From a virus: a DNA stretch of 64,000 nt. The translations under genes were made by a program, and so were the position numbers. Positions 27,873-59,456 of the stretch are shown here, piece after piece (the first letter of the stretch is position 1; each line of letters starts with the position of its first letter). Under the pieces are notes generated by a model. The model searched no databases. It worked only from the letters and a program-made list of their open reading frames with translations, and was not told the DNA's origin. The stretch spans positions 1-64,000 of the IMG/VR virus record IMGVR_UViG_3300010354_000053; one strand, given 5' to 3'.

Positions 27873-30800
27873 AGTAAGATATCCTCTGGTTTAGAAATAC
27901 GAGGTACTTCAAAGCTTCCGACTTTAATAACGCCTTCGTTTGCTAACGGCAACGTGTATGTGATTTGAACGCTTTTAACACCAGGTACTTCTTGAATATG
28001 CTTTATAACTTGGCTAATTACAACTTCTTTACCAACACCCAATGAATTGATATATGTCGTGATTGCTGATTTAATTGGATTTTTAATTGTATTTAAAGAA
28101 ATACCATCGCTTGATTCAACAGAAATACCAATTTGAATACTCTTGATTAATGGAGCTAAGATTTCAATCGAAGTACCAGCGGCTCTGACTCCTGGATATG
28201 CAATCGTATTAGAAGGCAAACCATCGAGTACTTTGTGAGCTTCGGCAATTAATTCAGAATAATAATTATATGCATCAACGCCAACTGTTGTTGAAGAATC
28301 AAAATTAAGTTTATGCAGACATTTAATTTGTGTGTTAAATGCTGGACTTAATTTATAGGCAGCAATCTGAGGCATTAGATACAATTCTGCATCCGTTTGA
28401 ATTGTATTATGGTGTGCATAACCTGAAACCCATCTGTAACCCTTATAAGGGACGGCTTCTTCAAAAGCTATTGCATTTTTTGAATTTGCCAAAACAACTT
28501 GTTTAGAAATACTTGTTGCATTAATAATACCCGCCTCAACAAAAACATCAAATTCATTATTAATACCAATTTTGGTAATAGGCCATTTTCCAATTAAAGA
28601 TGTATCAAACCAAGAGGTTGTTCCCACGTTTGGGGTTTTAACAATCAAATTATCATTTTCAAATACAGAATCAATATCCCATATTCTTACATGGCGTTTA
28701 TCTTGAGTGTTTATTGTGTTTGTATCACCGATTGGTCCAACTTGCCAATTAACGTTTCCTCTTGTGTTATCAGAATTAATAATGTCTTCTTTTAAAGAAA
28801 GAATTTCTTCAACAGCTTCATCGTTTTTAATGATAAAAGCGTTCTTGCCATTGTGGGCAATAATTTTGAATCGACCGCGATTTGCAACTGCAAATGCATC
28901 TGAAAACGAAATTAAATCGTCAGAACTTACAGATAGATCGTGTAATTGCATATCATCGTGTGAATCAAATGCAAAATCTACATAAACAAACCCATTTCCT
29001 AAAGGTTTGATTCGGTAGTACACCGATTCATTTGAAGATAATTTCCAAGAAGAAAAATCTTTTGGGGCTCCAGCTTTGTAATTTGTTTTAATATTTTTTT
29101 CATTTTTCAACATCGGGACAAACATGAATTCAGTTGTTTCACGAATAACACCAATACCGTCTTTATTTGTCTCATCATTTGTCGAGTTTAGTCTAGCGGT
29201 TGTTACATAAATGTTTGATGCATCTTTTCCAATTATTCTAGATCTTGCGTTGTTTGAATCGTTTAAAAAACCGGAAACAGAAACAGTATCACCAACAAAA
29301 AAATCAGAAATATTAATTAATGGACCGATTTTGACAAAACCTGTAAAAGAGCCAGATGTTTGATAGATAGCAGACATTGTATTAGAATCTGTTGTTTTTC
29401 TAGCGGAAACTATTTCGGGAACAATATTTGGACCAATTACATAGATAATCTTTTCATCTTCAATATGAACAACTGGATAACCAATATATTGATCTGTCAA
29501 ATCTTCGGTTGGAGTGACACATTGATTATTAGCGTCAAATAATGAAGTATAATCAACCGGATATGGCGAAGAAATATTTTTTGATCCTCTGAGGATCAAC
29601 ATATCACCAACTTTCGTATTAAAAGTACCGGTTCCAGAAGTTATTGCAATTTTTGCAATTGAATTTGTGGGTTTTGTGATTTCAATAGTTTCGTCACCTA
29701 CTAAACCGCTAAGAGATTTTCTGAATACAAATCTGCCTTTATTTGGGGATGGACGTGTGTATGAAACAACCGTTGAAATTTTAAACCAAGTTTCAATATC
29801 GGGTGAGTTTGTAGCAGTAATTTTTGAATCAACAGGCAGGGCGCTTGGTTGTGTACGATATGCTCTATAAATAGGGGCAGTTATTGAATTATTTATTTCT
29901 ACAAAAGATCCACGAGCAAACGACTGAGCAAGAGGAAAATCCGTTCGTATCTTGACAGATGTCCCTTGTTTAGAAGCGGCATTTTTTGCTTTTGCAGTTA
30001 CTGTATTTGCAGTAACTCCAGTGATTTTAACAGCTCCGGCAGCTCCCAAGTTTAATGAATTCAGCTGAATATTTTTTTCATCAGTAATACGAGAAATTTC
30101 AGCCTGGATATTAAGCGGACTAATTGCTGTAAATTTTAACCATTTTTCCAAAGCTTTTGCCGAAGCCGGAATTAAAACGCATTCTTGATCTGAATAAACT
30201 GCACTAAAACCTGTATTCAAAATCTTAGAAGACTCTGGTAATACCGAATCATCTGACTGCACAAGCGCAACGATCTCATTATCAATTGGAGAATAGGTAT
30301 GAATATGTGCAATGCATCCAAATGGGGCACGTGCAGAATGGTAATAGTTACTTTCAGTAAGAGTTGTTAAATTAGTTCTTGCAATTATATTTCCATGAGT
30401 GTGGTATGAAGGAAATTTAATGACGGAGCTTGTATTAGTCGTTGGAGTCGCTTCAATGGTAAATACTGGATTATTTGTATAATATTCGCCAGCTTTAGTG
30501 ATTACATCTTGGATAGTCTTTTGCAAAAGAGTAAATGACTGAATGGGCGCATAATCTGAAATATAGCTAACCGGTGTATAAACAGTTTGGCGAATCCCAG
30601 GTGCAGAAACAACAATTGTGTCTGGATCTGGGGTTTCAATAATTAAAAATGAACCAGAATATGGCTGAGAACCGCCAATATTTAAAATATCATCAATTAA
30701 AAAAGCGCCGGAAAGATTAATTGAAAGGGCGCTAATTGTTAGTTTAACAATTTCTGCGCCAGTTGGGCTGGTGTAATTAGATGGTGTAATTGTATAGGCA

Positions 30801-33800
30801 CCGGTATATTGGGTACCTAAGACTGCTGCGCCTGAACAAAGAGTGCAGTTTACAACCAAAACAGTGCGATCTTCTTCTTGAAAAGATTCATGAGTAAATT
30901 GAATTTGTGATGAATTTGGTTGTAGGGGAAAAGAAAAATTAAATCTAAAATCGTGTGCTGAGCCATACTGAGTGGATCTAATAACTAATGCATCTGATGG
31001 ATTTCCGCCAAACGGCAAACTTGGATACACGGTATGAATGATAGTTGGTTTAAATAAAATATTAAAATCAGTAAAATCAAATGAACGGAATGGGCTATTA
31101 GGTTCAAAGAATGGACGCGGTTCATTTGTTATTAATTTGTCTTCTGGGTCTTTTAAAGTAAAAATAAATTGATTACCAGGACCTGCTCCAAATGGCTGCA
31201 CTACTTCTGTAAGTGCTTTTTTATACATCGGTATATTAGTTGTTTTATTAGTTGAATCTAAATCCATTTGTACAACTAAGCGATCAACTGGAGTCAGAGG
31301 AATATCATTTAATCTTAAAGATAAGTTTGATCGTGTTTCATTTGAGCCGTAAACAGTTTGTGAAAGAGGCGGAATAGTATCTACCCCGCGAACAAACCCT
31401 CCAAATGGAGCGGTTGAATCGTTATTATAAATACGAGAAATAATATTTTCATTACGACCAGTTATAAAAGCTTCTTGCAATCCTTTTGGATAATCAATAA
31501 TATTAGCGGATGCAGCAATTGCTGGGTTTTCGGCATCATTTAAAACTTCAGTTTCGGTTGTTGAAAATCCTAAATAGCCCCGAGTGTTGTAAAAATCTTT
31601 TGGGAGCGTAGGGTCGCCAGTGTTGGCGATATATGGTGCACCGCTTGCAATAAAACCACTTTTTTTGGCGGCGGTGTGTGGCTGAATACTATCTGCAATC
31701 ATTTGACTAAATAGATTATTAGCGGAAGAAATAGAAGCTAAAATAGCTACTGTTGATTTATTTTGATCAAAATTATTTGATCTGATAGCAATTTGTCGCG
31801 GGGATAATTTATACGCAGAAGCCCCAATTAACTGTTTATTAATTTCAGTTACAAGAATATCTGCAGTTTGATAATCGGATGCGGGAATACTTATAATTTG
31901 AGGCACAGCGTTGTCAATTTTAAATGCAGAAAGCATCCCAGAAGTCAAATCGAAAGAAGTCGGAGTTAAAGGACTTAAACCATCAATTGTTGTTTCGCCA
32001 GAAACGGAAGACGCTACCGCAGATACGGGTAGGTCGATATAGAAAGTATCCATAGTCGGAGCGGGCGATGCTTTAACAACAGCCGTAACCGGAAATGATA
32101 ATCCAGGGAAAATAGATTGTGTTAATGCACTTGCATTTGTGATTTGAAATGAATCAAGCTGTAAAAACCCGTGGTTAGGCAACATGACTTTAATAGTGGG
32201 AGAGCCAAGATTTGATTCAATCAATGTATTTGAAAAAACACCAAAAAATGCTTCGCGCTCGATTTTTGAAGTTTCAATGTCAATAAATGTATCTTTAGAA
32301 ACAGAAAAATTAATAGTATTTGGTGTAAAAACTGTGGCAACGCCTGCAATTTGTTTTTTAAATTTAAAAACAGTGCTGCTATCTACCGCAGATACTATGT
32401 GTGTGCCAACAATTTCCGAACTTAAAAAACTTGTACCGGCTGCTAAACTAGCCGCTGTGATTTCAAATGATTGCCCAACAACAAATCTATGATCCTCTGT
32501 TGTTGTAACAGTAAATGTTACATAGCCATTTACATCGGTTGTTGAATATTCGGTTGGAACTAGATTAAAATTTTGATCTACAGTTCTTGTGCAAAGACCT
32601 TTTTTAAGGACTTTCATTACACTATTAGTGCGTCCAGGTAGTCTGTTTGCGACTGAAGAGTTACTATTTAAATAGATGTAATCACCTAGTTGAATACTAG
32701 AATATAACGCAATATCAGAACTGTGTAATCTAACTACTGTAGAGTTAGGCGACAAAATTTCTGGGGTGAGAGAGCTTGCGCCAGTAAGACCAAGAGTTCT
32801 TAATTCAAACTCTCCATCAACACCAACAATAATTTTTGGAGTACCAAGGTTTGTACTACCGGCAGAAAATAAACCACTTGGCGCTGGTTTTGATTGAATT
32901 TCTGCGCGGGTAAATTTCGACGAAACCGTCACATTGTCATTAAGTTGAGGTTCATTTAAAAGTTTAATTTCGCCGCTAATTCTATTTATCTCAAAATCTG
33001 GCGTTGCACCTTTACTTTCTAATACAGCCGAAGATTTAAATAACTTATTAACACCAATCCATGTTGCTGGAGCGCCTGTTGAAGTTGTAGGTTCAATTTT
33101 AACCGAACCGGTAGGACTCAAAGACTGCCATGAAGCAAAAGCTAGTTTTGAACCTACTTGATAAACATTTACACCCGCAACTTTTTTCTTAAAAACAGTA
33201 ATCCAGTCGGATAATTGTGCAGAGGCGATTGTACGACCGAGAGCCAACATGTCATTATTGTCGATTGTAAAAGTTTGTGTTACACCATCAACGGTCATTC
33301 TAACGTTTTGTAAGTCTAAGTCGGTTAATGATAACCATGGAAAATCTGAAGAGTAAACTACTGCAGATAAACCCTTAAAAGATAAAATTTTATTGTTTTT
33401 ATATACATAAATAGGTCTGATCTCATGAACAGGGAGACCTAAAATAGCTTGCAATTCGCTTGGTAAAATTTGCAAAGTTTCTGCTTGTCCAGAAATATCG
33501 AATACAGAAAATGTAGTTCCATCGTTAGCAGTTCTAAAACCTAATGCTGAAGATCCGCTAAGAATTACACCGTTGAATGCTCTGACAATTTCTGATGGAG
33601 AAACTGAAGAAAGATTTGTATATTCGGATTGATTGATTTCAAATCGTGTAGGTATACCATCAATAATAATGTCTAAATACATTCCGTCTTGCAAAGCGTA
33701 AGGCGCAGGCTCAACTCCTACAGCAATACAAGGAGAAATTGGTTTGTTTGAAGTTTTTAAGAAAATTTCTTGACCACTAGAATTTACTAACAATTGTTCA

Positions 33801-34840
33801 AAATCTTGACCACGGTACGATGGCTCTAACCCTGAACCATCATCTATGTATATTTTTGTTGAATCAGTTCTGTTTGTTGGCTCAACAATATTCAAAGATG
33901 TAATTGTTTTTCCACTAACCGGATCTCGCAATCCTTGTAAAGAACTAGAAATAGATTGTTTGGTTCCACGACTGAGTGATGCAATGTAATTTGCAATGCG
34001 GAGTCTCAACGCTTCGTCGCCTTCAGCACTAGCTCCGTTTGTGATTGTAGATGGATTAGAAACAATCGCTCCTGTGAACGGTGGTGTTAAAAATTGTTTA
34101 ATTGCACCAACTGAAACATTTCCGGTTTCTCCAAAAGAACTGCAAGTGACAGATACCCTGATAGTGTCTTCGCCGTCAGCAAGAGTAAATGATCCATCTA
34201 CGGTATACTGAACGGGAACATTTCCGCTAGAGCCAGGTGCAATTACAATAGCTCCTGCAGAAATTTGTCTTGTACCTCCCTGCGACAAAATAGCTGTTTC
34301 GCCATAAGAATGGTTGTTAACCAACGGGGTAGATGAGTTTAAATTTAAAGTCCAAAAAGTGTTGTTATTTTCAATACTTGTATATTGAATTGGCCCTTCT
34401 TCATTTGCGGTATTTCTTCCTAAATAAAACGCACCAGCAGAAGGCCACCCAGAGCAATCTTGAAGATAAACTTTAATACTGCCGGCGTAGGGTGTCGGTT
34501 TACCGATATATACCGATGTAGCCTTTTTAGTAAAGGGCGACGAAATTAAAACTTGTCCACTAGCTCTTTTAGCCGGAAAACGACCGAACCCACCAACACC
34601 ATTCGGTATTTGGGCCTCAATAGCTTTTTCATCCAGCTCACTACCAACTAAAGTTTGAAGATTAGAGCTTTCTAGTACTTTGAGGACGCCGATTTGATTT
34701 TGATAATCTTGAAGAGCGGCTGCTTCTAAAATTGTAGAAGTAATACTTCCTTCACTGACATCTGTAATATCAGTATTGGCAGTCAATTTCCGGATCATAT
34801 CAGCTAAAATCGATTGAACGCTTTTAACTGTAATTGCCAT
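27869..34840 (-). CDS. Giant baseplate J-like wedge protein (2323 aa)
   Basis: N-terminal TDVSEGSITSTILEA..G.ELD..A..GETGNV..GASAEGDEALRLRI..LSRGT and C-terminal AITTYINSLGVGKEVVISQVI..VPGV are baseplate-J hallmarks. Confidence 0.8.
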   Translation of the reverse strand: MAITVKSVQSILADMIRKLTANTDITDVSEGSITSTILEAAALQDYQNQIGVLKVLESSNLQTLVGSELDEKAIEAQIPNGVGGFGRFPAKRASGQVLISSPFTKKATSVYIGKPTPYAGSIKVYLQDCSGWPSAGAFYLGRNTANEEGPIQYTSIENNNTFWTLNLNSSTPLVNNHSYGETAILSQGGTRQISAGAIVIAPGSSGNVPVQYTVDGSFTLADGEDTIRVSVTCSSFGETGNVSVGAIKQFLTPPFTGAIVSNPSTITNGASAEGDEALRLRIANYIASLSRGTKQSISSSLQGLRDPVSGKTITSLNIVEPTNRTDSTKIYIDDGSGLEPSYRGQDFEQLLVNSSGQEIFLKTSNKPISPCIAVGVEPAPYALQDGMYLDIIIDGIPTRFEINQSEYTNLSSVSPSEIVRAFNGVILSGSSALGFRTANDGTTFSVFDISGQAETLQILPSELQAILGLPVHEIRPIYVYKNNKILSFKGLSAVVYSSDFPWLSLTDLDLQNVRMTVDGVTQTFTIDNNDMLALGRTIASAQLSDWITVFKKKVAGVNVYQVGSKLAFASWQSLSPTGSVKIEPTTSTGAPATWIGVNKLFKSSAVLESKGATPDFEINRISGEIKLLNEPQLNDNVTVSSKFTRAEIQSKPAPSGLFSAGSTNLGTPKIIVGVDGEFELRTLGLTGASSLTPEILSPNSTVVRLHSSDIALYSSIQLGDYIYLNSNSSVANRLPGRTNSVMKVLKKGLCTRTVDQNFNLVPTEYSTTDVNGYVTFTVTTTEDHRFVVGQSFEITAASLAAGTSFLSSEIVGTHIVSAVDSSTVFKFKKQIAGVATVFTPNTINFSVSKDTFIDIETSKIEREAFFGVFSNTLIESNLGSPTIKVMLPNHGFLQLDSFQITNASALTQSIFPGLSFPVTAVVKASPAPTMDTFYIDLPVSAVASSVSGETTIDGLSPLTPTSFDLTSGMLSAFKIDNAVPQIISIPASDYQTADILVTEINKQLIGASAYKLSPRQIAIRSNNFDQNKSTVAILASISSANNLFSQMIADSIQPHTAAKKSGFIASGAPYIANTGDPTLPKDFYNTRGYLGFSTTETEVLNDAENPAIAASANIIDYPKGLQEAFITGRNENIISRIYNNDSTAPFGGFVRGVDTIPPLSQTVYGSNETRSNLSLRLNDIPLTPVDRLVVQMDLDSTNKTTNIPMYKKALTEVVQPFGAGPGNQFIFTLKDPEDKLITNEPRPFFEPNSPFRSFDFTDFNILFKPTIIHTVYPSLPFGGNPSDALVIRSTQYGSAHDFRFNFSFPLQPNSSQIQFTHESFQEEDRTVLVVNCTLCSGAAVLGTQYTGAYTITPSNYTSPTGAEIVKLTISALSINLSGAFLIDDILNIGGSQPYSGSFLIIETPDPDTIVVSAPGIRQTVYTPVSYISDYAPIQSFTLLQKTIQDVITKAGEYYTNNPVFTIEATPTTNTSSVIKFPSYHTHGNIIARTNLTTLTESNYYHSARAPFGCIAHIHTYSPIDNEIVALVQSDDSVLPESSKILNTGFSAVYSDQECVLIPASAKALEKWLKFTAISPLNIQAEISRITDEKNIQLNSLNLGAAGAVKITGVTANTVTAKAKNAASKQGTSVKIRTDFPLAQSFARGSFVEINNSITAPIYRAYRTQPSALPVDSKITATNSPDIETWFKISTVVSYTRPSPNKGRFVFRKSLSGLVGDETIEITKPTNSIAKIAITSGTGTFNTKVGDMLILRGSKNISSPYPVDYTSLFDANNQCVTPTEDLTDQYIGYPVVHIEDEKIIYVIGPNIVPEIVSARKTTDSNTMSAIYQTSGSFTGFVKIGPLINISDFFVGDTVSVSGFLNDSNNARSRIIGKDASNIYVTTARLNSTNDETNKDGIGVIRETTEFMFVPMLKNEKNIKTNYKAGAPKDFSSWKLSSNESVYYRIKPLGNGFVYVDFAFDSHDDMQLHDLSVSSDDLISFSDAFAVANRGRFKIIAHNGKNAFIIKNDEAVEEILSLKEDIINSDNTRGNVNWQVGPIGDTNTINTQDKRHVRIWDIDSVFENDNLIVKTPNVGTTSWFDTSLIGKWPITKIGINNEFDVFVEAGIINATSISKQVVLANSKNAIAFEEAVPYKGYRWVSGYAHHNTIQTDAELYLMPQIAAYKLSPAFNTQIKCLHKLNFDSSTTVGVDAYNYYSELIAEAHKVLDGLPSNTIAYPGVRAAGTSIEILAPLIKSIQIGISVESSDGISLNTIKNPIKSAITTYINSLGVGKEVVISQVIKHIQEVPGVKSVQITYTLPLANEGVIKVGSFEVPRISKPEDILL

Positions 34841-34852
34841 TATCGTTCTCCA

Positions 34853-36403
34853 TTATATAACAAAGGCTAATGGTATTAGCTGATTAGATCCCGCTATTGT
34901 AACTAATACAGTCATTCCGATTTTACCATCTGCCGATATCTGTATATCCTTTAGTGTAACAGAAGTAAAACGAGAATCTCGCTTTAAACTTTCTTCTACA
35001 ACCGTTGCTATTTTCGTGGAAGTTGTAGCTCCTTGCAAGGCAAAACCTAAATTATTAGAGATTCCATACTGTCTATGAAGGGGGAGTTGACCTTGTTCTG
35101 TTTTGAGAGTTGTTAAAATAGTCTGTCTAAGATTATTTATTCCAAATTGATACTTTAAATCACCATCGGTTCCGATTAAAAGATCACCAGTAACATCATC
35201 AGTAGCAACATCTACTCCAAATGATAACAAAGCTTTATCAATTTTCTTTAACTCTCCTTCGGAGGGCTCCGGGACATTTTGATTTGGGGCTATCATTGGT
35301 GTTGGTATTTTAACTAAAGAAAAGTCATTTAAGGTTTCTGGCTTGTATACTCTAATGTATGGAACATGATTAATTAATAATTTAGCTAGATCTTGTTTTC
35401 CGCTTAGATAAATAGTGGCTGAGCCATCCCTGTTATCATTGACCTGCTCAACTTTTCTGATTTCTTCGGGTACTAACCGACTACCAATTTTTACTGCTGC
35501 GTTAATTCGAAATTTTTCTTGTTGAGAAATTGGTACTCGTATTGTAGATGCACTGCCACTTTCTAGTAAAACAATTTTCTCGCCATACAAATCTACATAT
35601 GGTGCTTTTAAATTATTAACGGTTACAAGTTCATACCATTTTGCCGCGCTACCTAAATAATCTTGTGCCATTTGATGCAAACTTTTCTCAAACGGTACAA
35701 CCGTATAACTTTTATAAACGTCACTCACTCGTACTGTCGATTTTCCCTCGACTAATTTTTCATTTGCGAACTTTAATAAGTTTGGGCTGATATTTCTTCG
35801 ATATTTAAATTCTATAATTATGCCTTCAATATATTTTTCTAATTCAATTGTAGAATTTAATAAAACTAAATCAGAAATGAAATAGTCTCTTTGTTTTGGT
35901 GAACTTTTCCGTTGTTTAATCTGATCGTAAAATGAGTTACCCAAACCAATAAAATCAAAAGCAATTTCTCTTTGAGCTTTTAAAAAACTCAACATTCCTT
36001 TGAAATCTTCAACATCAAATTGAGTCACCCTTTGAATTTCTTCTTTGACAAACTGAGATTCTGGATCTGTTAAATCGATAGTAGCTATATCAATCAAACT
36101 CAACAGTTCGGACATCTCAGCGAAAGTATTCAAGTCTAAGAATGGGTTAACATTCGCTCCGTTTTCATAAGATTCAATATAATCGTGTAACCTGAGAATC
36201 TGCTGAGTTAAAAACTCGTCCCCATTCGCGTATTTTTCGAATTGAGGTATTACCCTAGACTTGTTTTTAACAAACCATGTCCATCTGTCTGCTGTTAATT
36301 TTGCGAATAGATTTAATCCCAGCTTTCCTCCTGCCTTACTCTGCACGTAAAGCATTAAGTCTGTTTGTATAGAAAAGCGGTCTGTATACTGTTTCGTCCC
36401 CAT
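34853..36403 (-). CDS. Baseplate protein with LysM-like and C-terminal gp25/GPW-like domains
   Basis: SLHQMAQDYLGSAAKWYELVTVNNL (LysM-like); GINNLRQTI..LKTEQGQLPLHRQYG..LKRDSRF (gp25-like); GAGG RBS before the ATG at 36403. Confidence 0.7.
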   Translation of the reverse strand: MGTKQYTDRFSIQTDLMLYVQSKAGGKLGLNLFAKLTADRWTWFVKNKSRVIPQFEKYANGDEFLTQQILRLHDYIESYENGANVNPFLDLNTFAEMSELLSLIDIATIDLTDPESQFVKEEIQRVTQFDVEDFKGMLSFLKAQREIAFDFIGLGNSFYDQIKQRKSSPKQRDYFISDLVLLNSTIELEKYIEGIIIEFKYRRNISPNLLKFANEKLVEGKSTVRVSDVYKSYTVVPFEKSLHQMAQDYLGSAAKWYELVTVNNLKAPYVDLYGEKIVLLESGSASTIRVPISQQEKFRINAAVKIGSRLVPEEIRKVEQVNDNRDGSATIYLSGKQDLAKLLINHVPYIRVYKPETLNDFSLVKIPTPMIAPNQNVPEPSEGELKKIDKALLSFGVDVATDDVTGDLLIGTDGDLKYQFGINNLRQTILTTLKTEQGQLPLHRQYGISNNLGFALQGATTSTKIATVVEESLKRDSRFTSVTLKDIQISADGKIGMTVLVTIAGSNQLIPLAFVI

Positions 36404-41293: not shown

Positions 41294-41486
41294 TATCCTC
41301 TTTCTGGTTCATGCGAGGTTCTTTGTATGCTTTTTCTACACCATTCACAGCAGCCAATGCAATGGCTACAGACGCAATCGAGTTTGCAACATCCACATCA
41401 TTAACAAATCCTAGAATTGCTAAAATTGTGATTGTATAAAACGCAATTGCAGTCCGCCTGCAACCATTAAATGGTGTTAATAACAT
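41247..41486 (-). CDS. Putative holin
   Basis: 79 aa, two hydrophobic segments, charged C-terminal tail, directly upstream of the endolysin. Confidence 0.6.
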   Translation of the reverse strand: MLLTPFNGCRRTAIAFYTITILAILGFVNDVDVANSIASVAIALAAVNGVEKAYKEPRMNQKEDIEYAGNGQKNKKTSS

Positions 41487-41983
41487 TACTTATATTTCTT
41501 CTTTAATAAAGAATGAGCCTTTTTAAGAGCTTCTGCACTTCCAAACCCTTGTTTTTTAACTGGTTTGTCGTTTACAGATTTTTCTTCGCCCATTCTTTCA
41601 GAATAATCACCTATCACATCAGACTCTGGAATTTCTCCGGCGACGGCGCCTTCTTTTGGTTTTTTTGGCAAAGCTGGATTTTTTGTTTGCTCTGCAGATT
41701 TTTCCATATCTTCTGTTTTTGCCATTGCAGTTTGTGATGACGTTTGCACCAAGGCGGGATTAGGTTCCATGCCTGGCATTGAACCGCCGGCTGGCATAGC
41801 CTGTTTTTGTAATTCTGTAGCTTTTTCCATACGTAGTTTATTAAAAACCTGAGCACGATCTTCAGCATCAACTTTTGGGATAACTTCATTAACTTTAGCA
41901 GGGCCTTTAATTTCTTCTACCGCTTGATCAACCGACAATCCTTTGCACATTTTGTGCATTTTTTTAAGATGTTGAACGCTCAT
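41486..41983 (-). CDS. Hypothetical charged, low-complexity protein
   Basis: GGAG RBS before the ATG at 41983; TAATG coupling to the holin. Confidence 0.65.
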   Translation of the reverse strand: MSVQHLKKMHKMCKGLSVDQAVEEIKGPAKVNEVIPKVDAEDRAQVFNKLRMEKATELQKQAMPAGGSMPGMEPNPALVQTSSQTAMAKTEDMEKSAEQTKNPALPKKPKEGAVAGEIPESDVIGDYSERMGEEKSVNDKPVKKQGFGSAEALKKAHSLLKKKYK

Positions 41984-42078
41984 TTTTTTCTCCAAAAAAA
42001 CCTTGACTTTTAATGAAATTAATGCCATTGTCTTATATTAGCAAATCGCTAGTATAAATTATACACTTGGAGTCGCCT

Positions 42079-43002
42079 ATGGCAATTGATTTAAGCAAAA
42101 TGACGTTTGGCGCTGAACTAGAACTTGGCGATGTTGATACAAAAATTATTCTGCCGCTAGGTAATAGATGGTGTGATAAAGATGGATCTATTTGTAATTC
42201 CAATGGAACTGCAAACGATCCGAAAAAAGTTTTTAATCGGTATGGTGGTGAGATTCAAATGAAGCCTGAAAACTCTCCGGAAGAGTTGCTTCGAGCCACT
42301 AAAGAAATCTACGACCTTCTGCCTAAAAAACACTTTAACTTTACCACTAATTTGCATGTTCATATTCGTATTCCCGGACTTAAGGATGACTTAGAGGCCC
42401 TAAAGAAAATTGCTGCGTATCTTCGTAAATATGACGAAGAAATTTATGAACTTATAGACCCAAATCCATTCCCAGAACGACAACTTAAATTTTCCAATCC
42501 TGACTTTTACAACGGCGCAGTCTCGAGATGGCGTCGTCGTAATAAGTCACATAGGTATCGGGTGACAGAAAAAGTTCATAAATTAATGATGAACGCAAAA
42601 TCACCACGCGAGTTCTACGAGGCTCACGCCCCTAAAAATCGTTTTGGACAACCAATGTGGCATGTTGTGGTCAGAGCCGGTGTGAATCTCAAACAAGTAT
42701 TTGAAGATACTGAAACTATTGAGTTTCGGCATTTTACAATGTCACCAGATCTAAATAAGATGTTGTCGGCATATAAGTGGCCTAGGCTTCTTATGGAAGC
42801 AATTTTTGTCACGGGGCACACACCGAAGCAGATTTTAGAAAACAATCCAGACTTGGTATTCCAAAATTTTCATCCGTATGATCACGAACTAGATAAAATC
42901 TTTAGGCAAACCAATGTTTACCATAACAAACGTTCCGAAGTGCGGGAAAACTATAAACGTTTAATTGAGCAGGGCCTAGTTGACGAACAGACTCTTTATT
43001 GA
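42079..43002 (+). CDS. Putative amidoligase (COOH-NH2 ligase-type) enzyme
   Basis: TFGAELE, DGS, GGEI, LHVHI and TIEFRHF motifs. Confidence 0.75.
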   Translation: MAIDLSKMTFGAELELGDVDTKIILPLGNRWCDKDGSICNSNGTANDPKKVFNRYGGEIQMKPENSPEELLRATKEIYDLLPKKHFNFTTNLHVHIRIPGLKDDLEALKKIAAYLRKYDEEIYELIDPNPFPERQLKFSNPDFYNGAVSRWRRRNKSHRYRVTEKVHKLMMNAKSPREFYEAHAPKNRFGQPMWHVVVRAGVNLKQVFEDTETIEFRHFTMSPDLNKMLSAYKWPRLLMEAIFVTGHTPKQILENNPDLVFQNFHPYDHELDKIFRQTNVYHNKRSEVRENYKRLIEQGLVDEQTLY

Positions 43003-43009
43003 GGATTGC

Positions 43010-43462
43010 ATGAAAGTTTTATTTATTTGTACGGGTAACAAGTTTCGTAGTCCAACTGCGGAACATATTATGAAATGCCTAGCCCCGCATTTAGAAGTTA
43101 AATCGGCTGGAACAGCGGAAGGCGCTCATAAAAACTATTTAATGGCCAAAAAAATGCGTCGTTGTTTAATTGAATTAGGTTATCCTGAGCCCGCAATACG
43201 TTCTCAGCATCTGACGGCGGAATTAATGGAGTGGGCAGATATTGTTTTATATATGGCCCCTACACATTTCAACTATATGTACAAAAATCATGTCCAATTT
43301 ATACATAAATGCAGGCCGCTCTACACCGTCCTGCCAGACCTTGATTTAAAACGAATTGAAGACCCTGCTTTTATTAAAAAGCATGAAGATGTTATGGAAG
43401 TAACTAAAATTATTGAAGATTCGATTAAAAAAATACTAAACGATGAAGCAAAACTAATTTAA
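43010..43462 (+). CDS. Low-molecular-weight phosphatase (LMW-PTP/ArsC fold)
   Basis: VLFICTGNKFRSPTAE (CX5R), SAGT, WADIVLYM, IEDP. Confidence 0.9.
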   Translation: MKVLFICTGNKFRSPTAEHIMKCLAPHLEVKSAGTAEGAHKNYLMAKKMRRCLIELGYPEPAIRSQHLTAELMEWADIVLYMAPTHFNYMYKNHVQFIHKCRPLYTVLPDLDLKRIEDPAFIKKHEDVMEVTKIIEDSIKKILNDEAKLI

Positions 43463-43692
43463 ACTTCGGAATTACCGATCTTATTCTTTTGACGAGAACC
43501 TGTTGGAATAGATGTACCCGGAAGTTTAGGAGCTTCTGGCATTTTTATTTCTGAAGTTTTAACTGTAGTTTTTTTAGAAGTAGAAGATACAGAACCGTCA
43601 AGAATTTTGTACATTCTGTCTTGTACAGTTTCTGCAGGTGTGGATTTAGTCATTTTCTTGCACAGTTCGACTATTTCTAACAGTTTGTTCAA
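43459..43692 (-). CDS. Hypothetical protein
   Basis: Last ORF of the minus-strand operon; likely start at 43653. Confidence 0.45.
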   Translation of the reverse strand: MNKLLEIVELCKKMTKSTPAETVQDRMYKILDGSVSSTSKKTTVKTSEIKMPEAPKLPGTSIPTGSRQKNKIGNSEV

Positions 43693-44182
43693 GTTCGGCC
43701 TCTGTTACAATCCAAGGTGGTACGCAAACCATTTTATGCTCTATTTTACCATATTGGATATTAGATAAAAAAGGCTTCATGAGTTCTTGTTCATCTTGAT
43801 GGCGATTTTCTTTAATATAACCAATGTTATCGATATTTTTATCCAGTAATTTAGACATACAAGCCATACAAGGCTGAACACTCACAATAAATTGGTATTT
43901 ATGGATATTGATTGTTTGAATCATCTTTTCCAGAAGATCTGTCTCCGCATGGCGAATTAAGAATTTTTTAGCAGGATTTTTATCAATATTTAACTCGGCA
44001 AGAGCTTTTGAATTTTTTTCAAAAGCAGAAATTATCTTGTTAACGCCATAAGCAATAACAGAATTTGTGGATGTATCTACAGCAATTGCGACTACCTGAA
44101 CTAGAGGATCACTACTTCGTTTTTTAAGAACGTCAAATAGGATCTCGGTACTAACTACAGGGAAGGAGCCGTAGACAAACAT
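43646..44182 (-). CDS. dCMP deaminase-like zinc-dependent deaminase
   Basis: RSSDP..QV, HAE and PCMAC motifs. Confidence 0.8.
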   Translation of the reverse strand: MFVYGSFPVVSTEILFDVLKKRSSDPLVQVVAIAVDTSTNSVIAYGVNKIISAFEKNSKALAELNIDKNPAKKFLIRHAETDLLEKMIQTINIHKYQFIVSVQPCMACMSKLLDKNIDNIGYIKENRHQDEQELMKPFLSNIQYGKIEHKMVCVPPWIVTEAELEQTVRNSRTVQEND

Positions 44183-44793
44183 TCTTTAATTCCTTGTTGT
44201 AGTTTTTGTACTACTTGTTCGGGTGAATCTTCAAAATCTACTTTTACGAGAGTAACAGGAGCGCGACATAAATCCAAGAAATAACCTACGCACATCTTTG
44301 CCCTATCCATAAACACTTGAACATTATTGAATGTCAAGTCAGGAAGTCTTTCTTCAACAATACCAGCATTTTTTCTTCGCAAAGAAAGACGTTCTCTAAT
44401 CTTTTCTACAGTAAAATCGTAGTGTACAACAACGACTTTAATGTCTTCTTTATGGCGATATTCATTAACCATTTCTACCCAACGAGACGTAGACATAACG
44501 CCATCGATAATAACTGTATCTGACAGCTCGAGAGCATCAAAGAAACCTGTTCTAACTAGCGATGGTGTAGTTATGGAATCTGTGCCAGAATTTTTATTAC
44601 CAACCAAAACACAATTATCATATTGAACAATACTATATTTCTGCTCAATTGTAGCTCCCCTGTTGGGCATACGTTTTTTAATAAATTTACCCATTTTAGA
44701 AATTTCTTTGCCATCTCCTTGGCAAAAAGTATTTCTGGTGGTGGTTTTGCCGGTTGCACCTGCGCCCATTAGAAAAATTGCTACTTTAGTCAT
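44155..44793 (-). CDS. P-loop nucleotide kinase, 5-hmdU DNA kinase-like
   Basis: GAGATGKTT Walker A, GTD motif, VIIDG, ERL..RR lid; neighbours an amino-acid:DNA transferase-like gene. Confidence 0.65.
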   Translation of the reverse strand: MTKVAIFLMGAGATGKTTTRNTFCQGDGKEISKMGKFIKKRMPNRGATIEQKYSIVQYDNCVLVGNKNSGTDSITTPSLVRTGFFDALELSDTVIIDGVMSTSRWVEMVNEYRHKEDIKVVVVHYDFTVEKIRERLSLRRKNAGIVEERLPDLTFNNVQVFMDRAKMCVGYFLDLCRAPVTLVKVDFEDSPEQVVQKLQQGIKECLSTAPSL

Positions 44794-45160
44794 GAAAGCC
44801 CTCAATATACTCTTGATTTGTTTTATGGCATTTAAAACAAATTCTGTTTCCGTTTGGTGAAAAGAAAACATTGTTGCATTTTAAACAATTTCTATTTTTT
44901 GCAATGGCAGAACCGTGTTCTGAAAAAAACTTCTCGTCCGCTTTTCGTAGTTCTTCCATAAGCTGTTTGTGTCGCTCTTTACGTCTATTTGACGTTCGCT
45001 CTTTATTCTTTTTTATTTTTTCTGTTAAATCAATCCAGTTTAAATTATGTTGAATAACATAATTTTGCATGAATGATTCATGATTATCAATGGATGGTAC
45101 TGGAATATTGAGAGTTTTGCAAAACATTTTTAATGTAATTTTAGTTTCATTAACAATCAT
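44786..45160 (-). CDS. Hypothetical protein with C-terminal zinc ribbon
   Basis: CLKC..F...NRICFKC. Confidence 0.65.
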   Translation of the reverse strand: MIVNETKITLKMFCKTLNIPVPSIDNHESFMQNYVIQHNLNWIDLTEKIKKNKERTSNRRKERHKQLMEELRKADEKFFSEHGSAIAKNRNCLKCNNVFFSPNGNRICFKCHKTNQEYIEGFHD

Positions 45161-45170
45161 TACTCTGCCC

Positions 45171-45500
45171 TTATTCTAATTCAGCACCCATGTCTACGAT
45201 ACCTTCTTTCTGCAACAACGAAAGGGCTAACACTCGTTTAGAATCTGCAAAATTTCTTGTTTCATTGAAGGCACTGCGAAAAGTTTGCAGAACTTCTTGA
45301 GCAGCTTTAAATTCCGAATTAGCTTCCATTTCTTTCTTTGCCTTCAAAACATGCGCATTCTGTTCTGCAATGATCTGTTTTAGTTTATCGACGTTATAAG
45401 TTTTTAGCATTTGCAATTCATCGTAAGAATAATTCTTTACAAACGCTTTTTCAATATCACTCAGATGGCTGTACTTATTTGACTTACTCTTCTTTCTCAT
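45171..45500 (-). CDS. Hypothetical coiled-coil protein
   Basis: GGAGG RBS; ATGA overlap with the upstream gene. Confidence 0.65.
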   Translation of the reverse strand: MRKKSKSNKYSHLSDIEKAFVKNYSYDELQMLKTYNVDKLKQIIAEQNAHVLKAKKEMEANSEFKAAQEVLQTFRSAFNETRNFADSKRVLALSLLQKEGIVDMGAELE

Positions 45501-46360
45501 TTAACATCCTCCACAAAAAGTAATTGTTTCGTTTTAATGTATGCAGTTTTTTCTTTTACTGAAAAATGGTGTTGTAAAAACTTATGATCAAATTCACATT
45601 CATCTATTAAATTCCAAAATACGTTATCTGAATACAATTCTGGTTTTTTAAGAACTAAAAATTCATTAATGTCATGTCCAACTACATAACTCCCCTTGTG
45701 CAGTATTTTAGGCACTTTACACAAACAGCTTTCTACTTGACCAATCGGCGCGTTCCAAATTTTTGATAAATTCCAACCCAAAGCTTCCCATTCTGGGATT
45801 ATGTCTTTAGTAAATTTTTGATTAATACCATATAGGTAACGAAGTCCAAATACTGGTCCAGTATTTTTGTTAGGATCAGAGCTTTCGATTCCTAACCCAT
45901 TAATACGAAAGCTTTTATATCCAAGCGTTTGATCCATGAGTTCACAAGTTTTATAGCAGGCCCAATCACCAAAATATGGAATAGTCTTGAATAACTCTCT
46001 TCCGCTGTTAAAATCTAACTGCTCTGTTTTAAGCGTTGATTCAACTGTTAACCATCTATCAAAAGCTTTTTCAAAATTTTCAGTTCGTCGCACTTGTGGT
46101 GTTCGACCACGTTCCATTCCAAACTTACTGATTTTTTCAAACATCTGAATGGGTGTTTTACCTTCAGCAATTCCCCGCATGAATAAAACCATGCTTTCGA
46201 TAGAATAGTAATATACGTACATGAAAATTGCGGTTTCGGGGTCAAATTTTTCGTGATTAATAATTGATTTTAGAAAAGGATAAACAGGGTCAACATCTTG
46301 TGTGCGAATTAAAGCTAAGCTAGCCTTCTCGAAATCAGAAAAGTTAAATAGATGTTGCAT
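45497..46360 (-). CDS. Amino acid:DNA transferase-like protein (aGPT-PPlase clade 2; HhH-glycosylase fold)
   Basis: DVDPVY, GMER, FGDWACYKTCE, GP..GL, VESCLCK and Y.VGHDINE match my recollection of the family motif series. Confidence 0.75.
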   Translation of the reverse strand: MQHLFNFSDFEKASLALIRTQDVDPVYPFLKSIINHEKFDPETAIFMYVYYYSIESMVLFMRGIAEGKTPIQMFEKISKFGMERGRTPQVRRTENFEKAFDRWLTVESTLKTEQLDFNSGRELFKTIPYFGDWACYKTCELMDQTLGYKSFRINGLGIESSDPNKNTGPVFGLRYLYGINQKFTKDIIPEWEALGWNLSKIWNAPIGQVESCLCKVPKILHKGSYVVGHDINEFLVLKKPELYSDNVFWNLIDECEFDHKFLQHHFSVKEKTAYIKTKQLLFVEDVK

Positions 46361-47249
46361 ATAAATACTCTTGAACGCCGTCAGCAAGTTCTTTAATGTA
46401 TGTTGGAGCATGGCGTAAGCCGTTTGCAGATTTTGGAGTTACATACATACAATTACCTTCTTGAATAAACGCATGTAAATAGTCTTCCATATAAGCTGGC
46501 CTCCAGCCTGTTTTTGGCTCTCCCGTTATTTCAATACTTACCTGGCCATTGGTTACTTTAGAAATATGCTCAATAATTTTTTGAATTTTATCTTTAATTT
46601 CTAAATCTTTTTGTTCTTTTTGATAAATAAAATGAGTACCAAGATAATAGGCATCGGTAGTGGGTTTTGGATATAGATACGCATTAATAAAACGACCTTC
46701 TTTTGCATTTAAACAAAATCTTGGATAACGATCAAATACTTCTCCGCTTGGCTTGCACTCTACCGACCATCCCCAACGATAATCGGTAGGTTTATATTTA
46801 TGAAAACCATTAGCGTGAATAATAAGGCGATTTGTTGGAGTTTTATTTATGCGAGAAGAAAAGAAAAAATCTTGGGTAAACTGCACAAACGCTTGTACAT
46901 TAACATGCATTGATTGTTTGTTTAAAACTTTAATATTACCTATAGTTTGCACGTACCTGAGTTCTTTAGAATTATTATGATGCGGAATGCTTTTTTGGGT
47001 ATATCCGTAAGGGACAGCTTCTGAAAAAAGAATAATTGGTCTGCGGTCTGTTTGGCTGAACGATTGTAGCCAAAGGTTATAATTAATTGCATCTAGCTCT
47101 TCACCTGATGGGTAAATACACCCAGTACTTGCCTTCCATGCACCGGGTGAATCGTCGTCTTCCCACGAAAACATAATTTTTCTACTAGTAAGCTCCCAAG
47201 CAAGAAGTGAACCAATCAATCCAAAGCCTTTAATATGTACTGTAGACAT
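46344..47249 (-). CDS. FAD-dependent oxidoreductase (glycine oxidase / DAO-like)
   Basis: N-terminal GFGLIGSLLAWEL Rossmann motif, AWKASTG, HANG, GWRP, NGLRHAP. Confidence 0.8.
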   Translation of the reverse strand: MSTVHIKGFGLIGSLLAWELTSRKIMFSWEDDDSPGAWKASTGCIYPSGEELDAINYNLWLQSFSQTDRRPIILFSEAVPYGYTQKSIPHHNNSKELRYVQTIGNIKVLNKQSMHVNVQAFVQFTQDFFFSSRINKTPTNRLIIHANGFHKYKPTDYRWGWSVECKPSGEVFDRYPRFCLNAKEGRFINAYLYPKPTTDAYYLGTHFIYQKEQKDLEIKDKIQKIIEHISKVTNGQVSIEITGEPKTGWRPAYMEDYLHAFIQEGNCMYVTPKSANGLRHAPTYIKELADGVQEYLYATSI

Positions 47250-57193: not shown

Positions 57194-57861
57194 TGATAAT
57201 GATCACGGACGATATTTATAATAAAAGCATTTATCCGCAGTGCGATTTTAGCATCATTGAATTGCCCCTTGAGTCCAAAGACGCTAAAAAAATGTACCAG
57301 CAGCTGTATAAAACTCAAAAAAATAACCATATTTCCCTTCAATACAGCAGACTTCCAAAAAAACTGCGCCTCAAAGCTATGAGCAATGTTTATTTGGGCG
57401 ATGAAATTGGTTTTAAATTTTATGATTATATAACAATTGTTTCGCAGCAGCCGTGTAGGCAGCCTCCTAATCATTTATCCCCACTTGGAGAAGTCGGCAT
57501 CTTATTTACTAAGAACGAAGAGCCGAATACTAAAACAACCAACTGGTTTAATCCCGAAATTGGCGATTGCACAAACGTTTGGGATGTTAGTTTTCAGCCA
57601 AAAGAGGGAAGCGGGCAGACTGTATCAAAAAAATTTGCGTGGGAGATAGGTTATCTTTTAGCAAATTTAGCGAGTCCGCTCATTTGTAGAAAATTTTTAA
57701 TACTGGGTCTGCCTGAGTTGTCAATGGCAAGGTTTGCATTACATTCAAACTTGCAAATGTATGCAATAACTTCAGATGAGTTTACGGCTAATAAAATTAT
57801 CAAAGATTATGATAAGGCGTGTAAAAGCGAGGTACAGGATAAATCATGGCAAAAGAAATAA
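57163..57861 (+). CDS. Hypothetical protein, degenerate DNA amino-methyltransferase-like
   Basis: E..ILFTK, TNVWDV and F..EI..LL layout resembles beta-class MTases, but DPPY and FxGxG are absent. Confidence 0.35.
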   Translation: MQITSADGRIVIMITDDIYNKSIYPQCDFSIIELPLESKDAKKMYQQLYKTQKNNHISLQYSRLPKKLRLKAMSNVYLGDEIGFKFYDYITIVSQQPCRQPPNHLSPLGEVGILFTKNEEPNTKTTNWFNPEIGDCTNVWDVSFQPKEGSGQTVSKKFAWEIGYLLANLASPLICRKFLILGLPELSMARFALHSNLQMYAITSDEFTANKIIKDYDKACKSEVQDKSWQKK

Positions 57862-59456
57862 AATATGGACACGAGGCAAGAAATAAAGCCGTTCAAGCAT
57901 TGGAAGAAATTTCCTATATTGTTGGCAGTACTCTTGGGCCTGGTGGTAAAACTGTTCTTTTAAGTCGTCGTAATTCTGCCGATGAAATTTCTGTTTCTCA
58001 TACTAAAGACGGGTTTAATGTATTAAACAGTTTGCGTTATACCGATCCGGTATTTGACGCCGTGCATAAACTTTGCCTACAGGCTAGTGCAAACTCGGTT
58101 GTGTCATCCGGAGACGGCACAACTTCAACTATTGTAATGGCTGCAGCTTTTGCTAAGGCTCTGGTCAATAGTGGAAATAATCCACAGGCGGCAGCTCGAA
58201 AGTTTCGCAAAGAAATTCAAAATGCTATAGAGGCTATTAAAAGCGAAGCTGTGGCTAGTGATGAAGCAGTTTATAAAGTGGCGCTTACTAGTGCTAACGG
58301 AGATGAGGAGCTTACTAAGTTTGTAATGGATGCAGTATCTCAAAGCTCAGCTTATGGAACTGTAATTGTAGAAAAGAACCCTATGTCTAAAGATCCTTAT
58401 AGGATTGATAAGGAATACGGTTACCAAGCTGGCACAGGATACAGCTATTATCTGCCATTTGCGCAAAGCATTCGACCAAACTTAGCAAATAATGCCGAGT
58501 TTACTCTTAAAAAATGCCATGTATTGCCATATAACGGCGACCTAATGATGATGTCTCAAGTTAAGCCAATGCTGGAGTCTTTAGCAAGAAATGCAACCGG
58601 TGGATGGAACTTATTGATTATTTGTCATCAGATTGCTGAAGATTTGGCTGCAAATTTGGCATTTTTTAATCGACAAAACCCTAATGCAAAAGTGTTTGTT
58701 GTAAGAACCACGCCCTCGGCAGAGCTGAATGGGCAGGTCCAACAACTTAATGATATTGCCTCGTATACTGGGGCAAAAGTTATGGATGGGGGCAGTTTAA
58801 CTCACTTGGTGATAGAAGATTTTGGCGACTGCCAGTCAGTTCGGATTGGACCACATAAAACTTTCATCTTAGGCAAATCTGAACGTAATTGGATTATTGA
58901 GCGAGCAGAACAAAATGAAGAATCGGCTCGCCTAGCACCAAGCCAAATGGATCGTGACATCATTCATTCCCGTAATGCATCGCTGACTGGTGGTTGTGTC
59001 AAGCTTATTATTGGCGGTTCGTTAATGAGTGATCTACAAGAACGAGCCGACCGTGCTGATGACGCTATTAAAGCTTCGCAAGCTTGTTCACGCTCAGGAG
59101 CTCTGCCGGGCTGCGGTGCATCGTACATGCGAGCGGGGCAGCAAGCTAAGGTTTCTGAATCCGTACAGACAGCGCTTGCGAGCATTCATAATGTGATTAT
59201 GACAAATTTTGGCGAAACGCCTATGAAGCATTTTGATAAAAATCAAACATATTATATTACCGACAATGATATCCAAAAGGTCGAAAACTTTTTAGACCAT
59301 GGAGTTGCTGATAGTTTTGAAACTATTCGGTCAGTTATCACAAACGCCTTTGAACTAGGTTTGTTGGTGACAAATTTAGGTGGATATAGCCTTGAAGCAG
59401 ATTTAGATCAAATGGAGCAGGCGGCAAGGGCTAAAGAAATTTTAAGAGGCGTATAG
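57846..59456 (+). CDS. groEL: Phage GroEL-like chaperonin
   Basis: AKEIKYG..AR, TLGPGG, TKDG, GDGTTS, SANGD, ERADRADDA, LPGCG. Confidence 0.9.
   Translation: MAKEIKYGHEARNKAVQALEEISYIVGSTLGPGGKTVLLSRRNSADEISVSHTKDGFNVLNSLRYTDPVFDAVHKLCLQASANSVVSSGDGTTSTIVMAAAFAKALVNSGNNPQAAARKFRKEIQNAIEAIKSEAVASDEAVYKVALTSANGDEELTKFVMDAVSQSSAYGTVIVEKNPMSKDPYRIDKEYGYQAGTGYSYYLPFAQSIRPNLANNAEFTLKKCHVLPYNGDLMMMSQVKPMLESLARNATGGWNLLIICHQIAEDLAANLAFFNRQNPNAKVFVVRTTPSAELNGQVQQLNDIASYTGAKVMDGGSLTHLVIEDFGDCQSVRIGPHKTFILGKSERNWIIERAEQNEESARLAPSQMDRDIIHSRNASLTGGCVKLIIGGSLMSDLQERADRADDAIKASQACSRSGALPGCGASYMRAGQQAKVSESVQTALASIHNVIMTNFGETPMKHFDKNQTYYITDNDIQKVENFLDHGVADSFETIRSVITNAFELGLLVTNLGGYSLEADLDQMEQAARAKEILRGV

Follow-up and report, generated by a model that had tools for sequence, protein, structure and literature searches.

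We analyze here a DNA-modification locus in a 64,000-nt stretch of viral DNA (hereafter the window), which corresponds to the first 64 kb of the 104,757-bp IMG/VR viral contig IMGVR_UViG_3300010354_000053 (CheckV completeness ~64%). The locus spans positions 43646-47249 on the minus strand, where six open reading frames (ORFs) form a tightly packed operon encoding a flavoenzyme, an amino-acid:DNA transferase (AADT), two small proteins, a P-loop kinase and a zinc deaminase. The evidence assembled below makes it highly probable that this operon is a post-replicative pyrimidine hypermodification module of the thymidine-hypermodification type. Our confidence pertains to the identity of the module alone; its chemical steps, its end product, the amino acid it uses and its substrate base are all inferred.

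At the right-hand end of the block lies the flavoenzyme gene (46344-47249; 301 aa), whose product carries a GxGxxG motif and has a predicted D-amino-acid-oxidase/glycine-oxidase (GR2) fold. It is followed by the AADT gene (45497-46360; 287 aa), encoding a predicted 5-phosphomethyl-pyrimidine glycinyltransferase that family profile, fold and residues place among clade-2 aGPT-PPlases from the PF18724 family, by a gene (o109; 45171-45500) for a conserved helical protein of 109 aa that is probably an accessory subunit, and by a gene (44786-45160) for a 124-aa zinc-ribbon protein with a C-terminal CxxC...CxxC. The kinase gene (44155-44793; 212 aa) and a gene (43646-44182) for a divergent 178-aa zinc deaminase of the CDA fold, putatively active on 5-hydroxymethyl-dCMP (hm-dCMP) or dCMP, complete the block. 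The flavoenzyme and AADT genes overlap by 17 nt when the AADT start is taken at 46360, the AADT and o109 genes overlap by 4 nt, o109 and the zinc-ribbon gene are separated by 10 nt, the zinc-ribbon and kinase genes overlap by 8 nt with the kinase start taken at 44793, and the kinase and deaminase genes overlap by 28 nt. The shorter start was adopted in both cases because the homologues of the AADT are 284-288 aa long and those of the kinase 212 aa.

An initial annotation of this DNA, made from its sequence, had described a block of overlapping or abutting minus-strand genes with a 17-nt oxidase/AADT overlap, two small proteins of which one was a zinc ribbon, and a dCMP deaminase, and all of these elements were recovered. 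The extent that it gave to the block proved too short. The operon continues past the deaminase into a conserved 77-aa ORF (o77; 43459-43692, minus strand), its last one. Convergent with the operon and abutting it at 42079-43462 are two plus-strand genes, which encode a putative Amidoligase_2-family protein (glutamine-synthetase-like COOH-NH2 ligase; 42079-43002; 307 aa) and a low-molecular-weight (LMW) phosphatase (42980-43462; 160 aa).

Searching with the AADT by tblastn leads to proteins named 'aGPT-Pplase2 domain protein' in Gordonia, Rhodococcus and Mycobacterium phages. Of the 19 members of its family, 16 match PF18724 with E values no higher than 1, the best being 8.8e-7, precomputed annotations assign five homologues to PF18724, and the family profile matches the sequence of 8z2m, the crystal structure of PaMx11 gp46/PUGT, with an E value of 5.7e-6. 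The AlphaFold (AF2) model of the window protein (pLDDT 93.9) aligns with 8z2m over 234 residues, with a VIA Z score of 16.7 and a root-mean-square deviation of 3.1 Å. At the residue level, D24, E83, W133, K137, E210, S211, C214, D230 and E233 of the AADT correspond to D24, E92, W146, K150, E243, T244, C247, D262 and E265 of PUGT, and D24, W133, K137, E210, S211, C214, D230 and E233 are invariant across 18 family members, E210 and C214 standing in the E-x-x-x-C arrangement. In gp46 the base is clamped by Cys247 and Trp146, a metal on thymine O4 is held by Glu243 and Thr244, glycine is bound by Asp24, Trp146 and Lys150, and the phosphate pocket is lined by Asp262 and Glu265 (PMC11472151); the Cys and the Glu are essential in M6 gp51 and ViI gp247 (PMC8989533). 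Profile and model together show the AADT to be a clade-2 aGPT-PPlase/AADT whose predicted fold and active site are those of PaMx11 gp46/PUGT, in agreement with the initial annotation. Since the catalytic and glycine-binding residues of gp46 have counterparts in the window protein, we predict that it transfers glycine or a similarly small alpha-amino acid. An ordinary helix-hairpin-helix repair glycosylase, the outcome that the initial annotation had set against its own assignment, is ruled out, glycosylases reaching Z scores of at most 7.5 versus 16.7 for PUGT.

The kinase belongs to a rare family, with 70 representatives among 1.84 billion proteins. Its sole PHROG match is phrog_800, which takes in the validated 5-hydroxymethyl-deoxyuridine (5-hmdU) DNA kinase (5-HMUDK) PaMx11 gp49 (5e-30) as well as two proteins annotated as kinases in actinophages, Wooper gp4 (2e-28) and Tonitrus gp7 (2e-23). 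When the profile of the 36-sequence kinase family (A3) was compared with hhalign, matches were obtained over ~135 columns to PaMx11 gp49 (97.3% probability, E 2.6e-11) and to M6 gp54 (97.1%, E 5.4e-11). Walker A, G-T-D (G-x-D), hhhDG (hhhD/EG) and RR motifs are common to the window, PaMx11, M6, Wooper and Tonitrus kinases, and residues G15, K16, D72 and R139 are invariant in 36 of 36 family sequences. The Asp of the G-x-D motif, which in the window kinase reads SGTDS, is invariant in the 36 family members and present in validated 5-hmdU DNA kinases; the GTD motif by which the initial annotation had recognized its P-loop kinase is thus a signature of this family. Searches with the kinase against deposited phages (tblastn) and against PDB sequences gave no match. 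From these sequence comparisons, 44155-44793 is shown to encode a distant member of the 5-HMUDK family. Kinase homologues are also found fused to ADDT, pyridoxal-phosphate (PLP; PALP), GNAT and DSP-phosphatase (DSPc) domains; these fusions link the family with DNA tailoring, a phosphatase being among its recurrent partners.

The P-loop protein might instead be a nucleotide (hm-dNMP) kinase acting with the deaminase in precursor supply, in which case the AADT would use some other activated intermediate. The overlap of the kinase and deaminase genes is in keeping with such a role, as are the name 'adenylate kinase family enzyme' that one source gives to one cluster member and the weak matches of the validated PaMx11 gp49 itself to thymidylate-kinase PHROGs. 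We regard this explanation as very improbable, given the profile-profile matches to two validated DNA kinases, the restriction of the PHROG hits of the window protein to phrog_800, the fusions of its family to ADDT and DNA-tailoring domains, and the adjacency of AADT and kinase in actinophages and in an unrelated jumbo phage (G007). As a side observation, the label of phrog_800, 'terminase small subunit', is a misnomer, the group containing the validated PaMx11 gp49; both PaMx11 gp49 and M6 gp54 are called terminase small subunits in GenBank too, a misannotation that is propagating.

The flavoenzyme gave no match in Pfam, PHROG or NCBIfam, and its profile matched no PDB sequence. Its AF2 model (pLDDT 89.6), searched with Foldseek/VIA, resembles D-amino-acid oxidase (DAAO; Z 22), as well as glycine oxidase, sarcosine oxidase, iminodiacetate oxidase and the FAD domain of MnmC (Z 19-20), so that the glycine-oxidase-like FAD enzyme of the initial annotation is borne out by both motif and fold; PaMx11 gp47 is not among the 50 VIA matches listed for it. 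Its best database matches come from actinophages: the protein shares 28-30% identity with the gene 5 product in Gordonia phages and 27.5% with that of gene 8 in Rhodococcus phage Tonitrus, each encoded within a TET-AADT-kinase cassette, and it belongs to the family of the unnamed last gene of actinophage ParB-TET-AADT-kinase cassettes, which is listed as hypothetical (PMC11955845). Family members adjoin an AADT gene in L007, a more distant version of the window cassette, in L009/L010 (a 327-kb jumbo phage) and in L011; this adjacency was seen in all lineages examined, amounting to five independent ones, TET/ParB thymine-dioxygenase cassettes included. Oxidative cleavage of an N-Cα bond has been shown for PaMx11 gp47 and, on tRNA, for MnmC. 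We infer from the model and its context that the flavoenzyme is an analogue of NGTO, that is, a predicted N-alpha-glycyl-thymidine oxidase/lyase lying outside the gp47 family.

A hypermodification pathway of the PaMx11 type, with kinase, AADT and flavin enzyme, is well supported by the predicted structures and the profile comparisons, by the conservation of catalytic residues, and by synteny and domain fusions. Its core would consist of three steps. The kinase (44155-44793) would phosphorylate the 5-hydroxymethyl group of 5-hydroxymethyluracil (hmU) in phage DNA. Cys214 of the AADT would then attack C6, the phosphate would leave and the alpha-amine of glycine would join the exocyclic methylene, yielding N-alpha-glycylthymidine. 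The flavoenzyme would finally oxidize the N-Cα bond and release glyoxylate to generate 5-aminomethyl-dU, in the manner of PaMx11 gp47 and MnmC.

The cassette block is kept gene for gene among collinear relatives. These include a complete genome, G001 (169,059 bp), with which the studied contig is collinear, matching positions 153.8-169 kb and 1-99.1 kb of G001 and leaving its 99.1-153.8 kb unmatched, and the closest relative, G002. The o109 protein is 91-96% identical in close relatives and 42% identical in L007, with a constant position between AADT and kinase, and returned no family match and no Atlas lead. The zinc-ribbon protein, for which no family match was obtained either, is kept in G001 and G002 and missing from L007, and o77 is kept after the deaminase in both G002 (90%) and L007 (36%).

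The plus-strand pair that faces the operon may extend the pathway. The amidoligase scores 19.9 bits (E 7e-4) with PF12224, for which the cut-off is 22, has an Atlas feature score of 0.97 to amidoligase clusters, displays the motifs AELE (ExE), HVH (HxH) and EFR, and is 27% identical (E 3e-18) to an amidoligase-like gene of another genome, G005; a search of PDB by sequence gave no match. The LMW phosphatase matches PF01451 with 56.3 bits (E 5.5e-15; cut-off 23.2) and phrog_12429, and has an intact CX5R-S loop ('CTGNKFRS') and a D-P motif. In G001 and G002 the amidoligase is conserved at 87-95%, and amidoligase and phosphatase taken together at 61-95%. Amidoligase domains have already been noted on 5-HMUDK/AADT contigs (PMC8989533). 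The pathway of the initial annotation had thus overlooked a likely last step encoded right beside the cassette: the amidoligase would use ATP to join a carboxylate to the amine of the 5-aminomethyl group, taking the place of the PaMx11 acetyltransferase, and the LMW phosphatase would clear phosphate from unsubstituted 5-phosphomethyl sites. The end product of such a ligation, to which we give somewhat less than an even chance, would be an N-acyl-aminomethyl-uracil, a base so far undescribed. As a separate observation on this flank, G001 carries beside its amidoligase gene two large genes (30566-35088, minus strand; one for 715 aa and one for 791 aa, the latter including a lysostaphin-N-like segment), the counterpart of which in the window (41486-42028) is a 180-aa ORF, marking a variable insertion point next to the modification locus.

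The initial annotation had counted one AADT and no PLP enzyme, which holds for the window and not for the whole contig. The latter also encodes a stand-alone HMUDK_hel (formerly aGPT-PPlase1) of 307 aa (85182-86105, minus strand; PF18723, E 1.8e-21), a homologue of PaMx11 gp50 and M6 gp55 located between the large and small terminase genes, and an alliinase/TAA1-type fold-type-I PLP enzyme (101534-102589, plus strand; Alliinase_C, E 5.6e-30), which has no relationship to the PLP decarboxylase of M6, an enzyme of the threonine-dehydratase type; both lie outside the window. Local tblastn searches of the contig and G001 detected no PaMx11 acetyltransferase or HD hydrolase, no M6 PLP or radical S-adenosylmethionine (SAM) enzyme, no SPO1-type dNMP kinase and no PanD. 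The result for the acetyltransferase sustains the earlier proposal that its lack in this phage points to a different end product. In G005 (L012:1039-3584 and L008), an Asn-type hydroxymethylase, a PanD-like aspartate decarboxylase and the amidoligase-like gene lie side by side, and an AADT, a pair of kinase-like genes, a flavoenzyme of the gp47 type and HMUDK_hel are encoded in the genome as well; this cluster may lead to a beta-alanine-containing base.

The origin of the hydroxymethylated base bears on both the deaminase and the substrate of the module. The deaminase matches PF00383 above its cut-off (30.5 bits versus 25; E 3.5e-7), its HAE and PCxxC zinc-ligand motifs are invariant in four orthologues, and it stays next to the kinase in L007 at 40% identity. 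A second CDA-family gene is encoded elsewhere in G001, and it has no PDB or phage match. Both G002 and G001 carry a thymidylate-synthase (TS)-family gene among their tail genes, ~4 kb to the left of the contig start, and this gene and its neighbors are missing from the contig because the contig ends there. The gene is the only TS-family member in G001 (149162-149869) and is T4 gp42-like, its best solved relatives being T4 dCMP hydroxymethylase and the CMP hydroxymethylase MilA. The Asp of its 'GVPYD' motif aligns with T4 Asp179, at the position of N177 in E. coli TS, which constitutes a cytosine-specific signature, and the dUMP hydroxymethylases PaMx11 gp51, M6 gp58 and that of G005 have Asn at this position. 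Judging from its sequence, the relatives' enzyme is probably not a dUMP hydroxymethylase. With an enzyme of the Asp type, 5-hmdU, if it is the substrate, needs an unusual route, or else the substrate is 5-hydroxymethylcytosine (5-hmC). The proposal of a hypermodified thymidine in the initial annotation consequently stands in part: a kinase/AADT/flavin pathway of the PaMx11 type is well supported, and 5-hmC stays a candidate substrate. The lack of an hmdU synthesis gene, an outcome that the annotation had set against its own proposal, is half borne out, the contig having no dUMP hydroxymethylase and the enzyme of its relatives being of the Asp type.

The most coherent reading of the supply, to which we nevertheless give somewhat less than an even chance, runs from dCMP to hm-dCMP through the gp42-like Asp-type hydroxymethylase and from hm-dCMP to hm-dUMP through the deaminase of the cassette, providing hm-dUMP for incorporation. 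This route is favored because the only TS-family gene of G001 is of the Asp type, a deaminase is retained within the operon, a second CDA gene is present in G001, human cells are known to deaminate hm-dCMP to hm-dUMP, and the O4-metal site of the AADT is conserved.

A more conventional supply would rely on an ordinary dCMP deaminase yielding dUMP for a TS-family enzyme that tolerates dUMP despite its Asp, or on some other hmU source, such as an oxygenase-like protein acting on T in DNA, and would leave the later steps the same. dCMP deaminases are common in phages with hmU-based DNA of the SPO1 type, and the trimeric dUTPase encoded by G001 would also yield dUMP. A candidate oxygenase exists as well, a 2-oxoglutarate-Fe(II)-oxygenase-like protein (HxD...H...R) found in G001 (133997-134860, minus strand) and in G007 (L036:18-821) at 40% identity; each of these two unrelated phages encodes an AADT, a kinase and a TS-family enzyme of the Asp type, and in G007 the oxygenase-like gene adjoins the TS-family gene. 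This protein, however, has no detectable similarity to TET/JBP, Pfam, PDB or deposited phage proteins, Asn versus Asp is an established dUMP/dCMP switch in the TS family, with a T4 D179N mutant entry in PDB, the dUMP hydroxymethylases of PaMx11, M6 and G005 all have Asn, and deaminase and hydroxymethylase would be in competition for dCMP. We thus deem a conventional supply unlikely. TET/JBP and ParB proteins of actinophages and jumbo phages, used as queries in local tblastn searches of the contig and G001, found no match; PF12851 was not found in the contig either, in a search whose control matched nowhere and on a contig ~64% complete, so that absence is not shown by it.

The module might also act directly on 5-hmC made by the gp42-like enzyme in a T4-like genome, the kinase, AADT and flavoenzyme generating an aminomethyl-cytosine derivative and the deaminase, like T4 cd, providing dUMP for dTTP. 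T4 dCMP hydroxymethylase and MilA give the best alignments with the relatives' enzyme, whose residue at the D179 position is Asp, a second, unrelated lineage (the jumbo phage G007) pairs adjacent AADT and kinase genes with an Asp-type enzyme, cytosine, too, could chemically undergo Cys attack at C6, and the genome is AT-rich (~37% GC). The active site of the AADT argues for hmU over hmC, its E210 and S211 matching E243 and T244 of PUGT, the metal holders on thymine O4; this pair is conserved, and the C4 amino group of cytosine would not bind the cation. Moreover, a search of the complete G001 gave no MazG-type dCTPase (nor were MazG-type dCTPase and HD families found in G000, G001 and G002), the closest AADT-flavoenzyme pairs of known context accompany ParB-type thymine dioxygenases (PMC13229309), and a literature search gave no amino-acid-derived cytosine hypermodification. 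Action on 5-hmC within a T4-like genome hence appears improbable, and the outcome that would follow from it, a first amino-acid-derived (aminomethyl or acyl-aminomethyl) cytosine hypermodification, is in our estimation slightly more so.

Several observations weigh against the interpretation of the locus as a thymidine-hypermodification module with the steps proposed above. The AADT itself scores 13.7 bits (E 0.054) with PF18724, below the cut-off of 26.2, and the kinase matches phrog_800 only weakly (E 6e-5 to 8e-4). Flavoenzyme and gp47 are not orthologues: gp47 hits phrog_16743 (1e-170), the window protein hits no PHROG, and BLASTP and hhalign comparisons between the two cover only the N-terminal Rossmann (dinucleotide-binding) part, with an hhalign value of 60%. 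The amidoligase and phosphatase genes have no counterparts in L007, the more distant cassette, and their strand is opposite to that of the operon; they may be lineage-specific additions or unrelated to the cassette. On the supply side, no PF00303 (TS-family) match was found in the contig, which at ~64% completeness does not show absence from the genome, the Asp-type hydroxymethylase of the relatives fits a T4-like 5-hmC genome equally well, and the oxygenase-like protein of G001 and G007 could be another hmU source.

Comparison with characterized systems helps to delineate what the module shares with them. In the pathway leading to 5-AcNmdU in Pseudomonas phage PaMx11, gp46 is PUGT, gp47 NGTO, gp48 the acetyltransferase, gp49 the 5-HMUDK, gp50 HMUDK_hel and gp51 the dUMP hydroxymethylase (PMC8989533, PMC11472151). 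Both systems combine a DNA kinase of the P-loop type, a clade-2 AADT in which the catalytic and glycine-binding residues are identical, HMUDK_hel and a TS-family hydroxymethylase (here that of the relatives), and in both a GR2-fold flavoenzyme adjoins the AADT. They differ in that the window flavoenzyme represents a different, unannotated DAO-fold family without a phrog_16743 match, in that the window has an amidoligase and a LMW phosphatase instead of a GNAT acetyltransferase, and in that the relatives' hydroxymethylase is Asp-type (gp42-like) and that of PaMx11 Asn-type. The window operon, moreover, incorporates a deaminase and two small proteins, its HMUDK_hel gene lies 38 kb away between terminase genes, and the host genome is that of a ~165-kb DnaE-encoding myovirus, compared to a 60-kb siphovirus for PaMx11.

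The 'five-gene thymine hypermodification system' of Gordonia (Sourvirus) phages and Rhodococcus phage Tonitrus comprises ParB, Tet/JBP, aGPT-Pplase2, a 5-hmU DNA kinase plus one hypothetical protein (PMC11955845). It provides the best database matches of the window AADT (25-28%) and flavoenzyme (27-30%), its AADT, kinase and flavoenzyme genes are contiguous, and its 'hypothetical protein' falls in the family of the window flavoenzyme. In contrast, the actinophages make hmU after replication by means of a ParB-dependent thymine dioxygenase, and no TET/JBP or ParB homologue was found in the contig or G001; they also lack the deaminase, amidoligase and phosphatase. The MnmC oxidase domain, the ThiO glycine oxidase and DAAO share the fold (Z 19-22) and FAD-binding motif of the window flavoenzyme, and the conversion of cmnm5U to nm5U in tRNA by MnmC is the RNA counterpart of the predicted step. 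Identity to these enzymes is 12-15%, and the window protein is compact (301 aa) and stand-alone, with a base in duplex DNA as its predicted substrate. The relatives' TS-family enzyme, finally, resembles T4 gp42 in size (235-244 aa), in sequence (~29% identity) and in keeping the Cys nucleophile and the equivalent of Asp179. The hmC of T4 is glucosylated, whereas the relatives' gene co-occurs with kinase and AADT machinery otherwise tied to hmU, and it lies among tail genes, outside the studied contig.

The replication and structural genes of the contig include those for DnaE, a UvsX/RecA recombinase, ribonucleotide reductase, DnaB helicase, primase and contractile-tail components. Metagenomes of aquatic and freshwater origin, drawn from 12 studies, contain the cassette sequence, the phage family being recurrent in freshwater metagenomes, and a megablast search of deposited phages with the locus gave no match. 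Elsewhere, the window encodes a GroEL-type chaperonin (57846-59456, plus strand; Cpn60_TCP1, E 1e-28), and the contig beyond it a GMP reductase/IMPDH-family enzyme (73747-74805, minus strand; E 4e-71). In the region of G001 that the studied contig lacks, a Mom-family protein (115262-115906, plus strand; PF25680, E 3e-32) suggests a second, adenine-directed DNA modification.

The kind of system described here is already known, 5-HMUDK/AADT thymidine hypermodification having been established for PaMx11, M6 and ViI, and combinations of 5-HMUDK/AADT with flavin enzymes and with amidoligases have already been reported in metavirome surveys. What is new is the pairing of AADTs with a non-orthologous flavoenzyme family, the replacement of the acetyltransferase by an amidoligase and phosphatase pair, the presence of an in-operon deaminase alongside a cytosine-type hydroxymethylase and the dispersed location of the HMUDK_hel gene; the final base may be new as well. 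Hypermodified bases shield the DNA of phages against nucleases, restriction enzymes among them, and the pathways that build them are a source of enzymes for writing DNA chemistry. A predicted role can now be offered for the fifth gene, so far unnamed, in the five-gene systems of actinophages, and the amidoligase/phosphatase tailoring pair predicts an undescribed, amide-linked base. The association of the deaminase with a gp42-like hydroxymethylase points to a possible alternative route to hmdU, from dCMP through hm-dCMP to hm-dUMP, or else to kinase/AADT chemistry on cytosine, in which case the reach of 5-HMUDK/AADT chemistry in these phages would extend beyond uracil.

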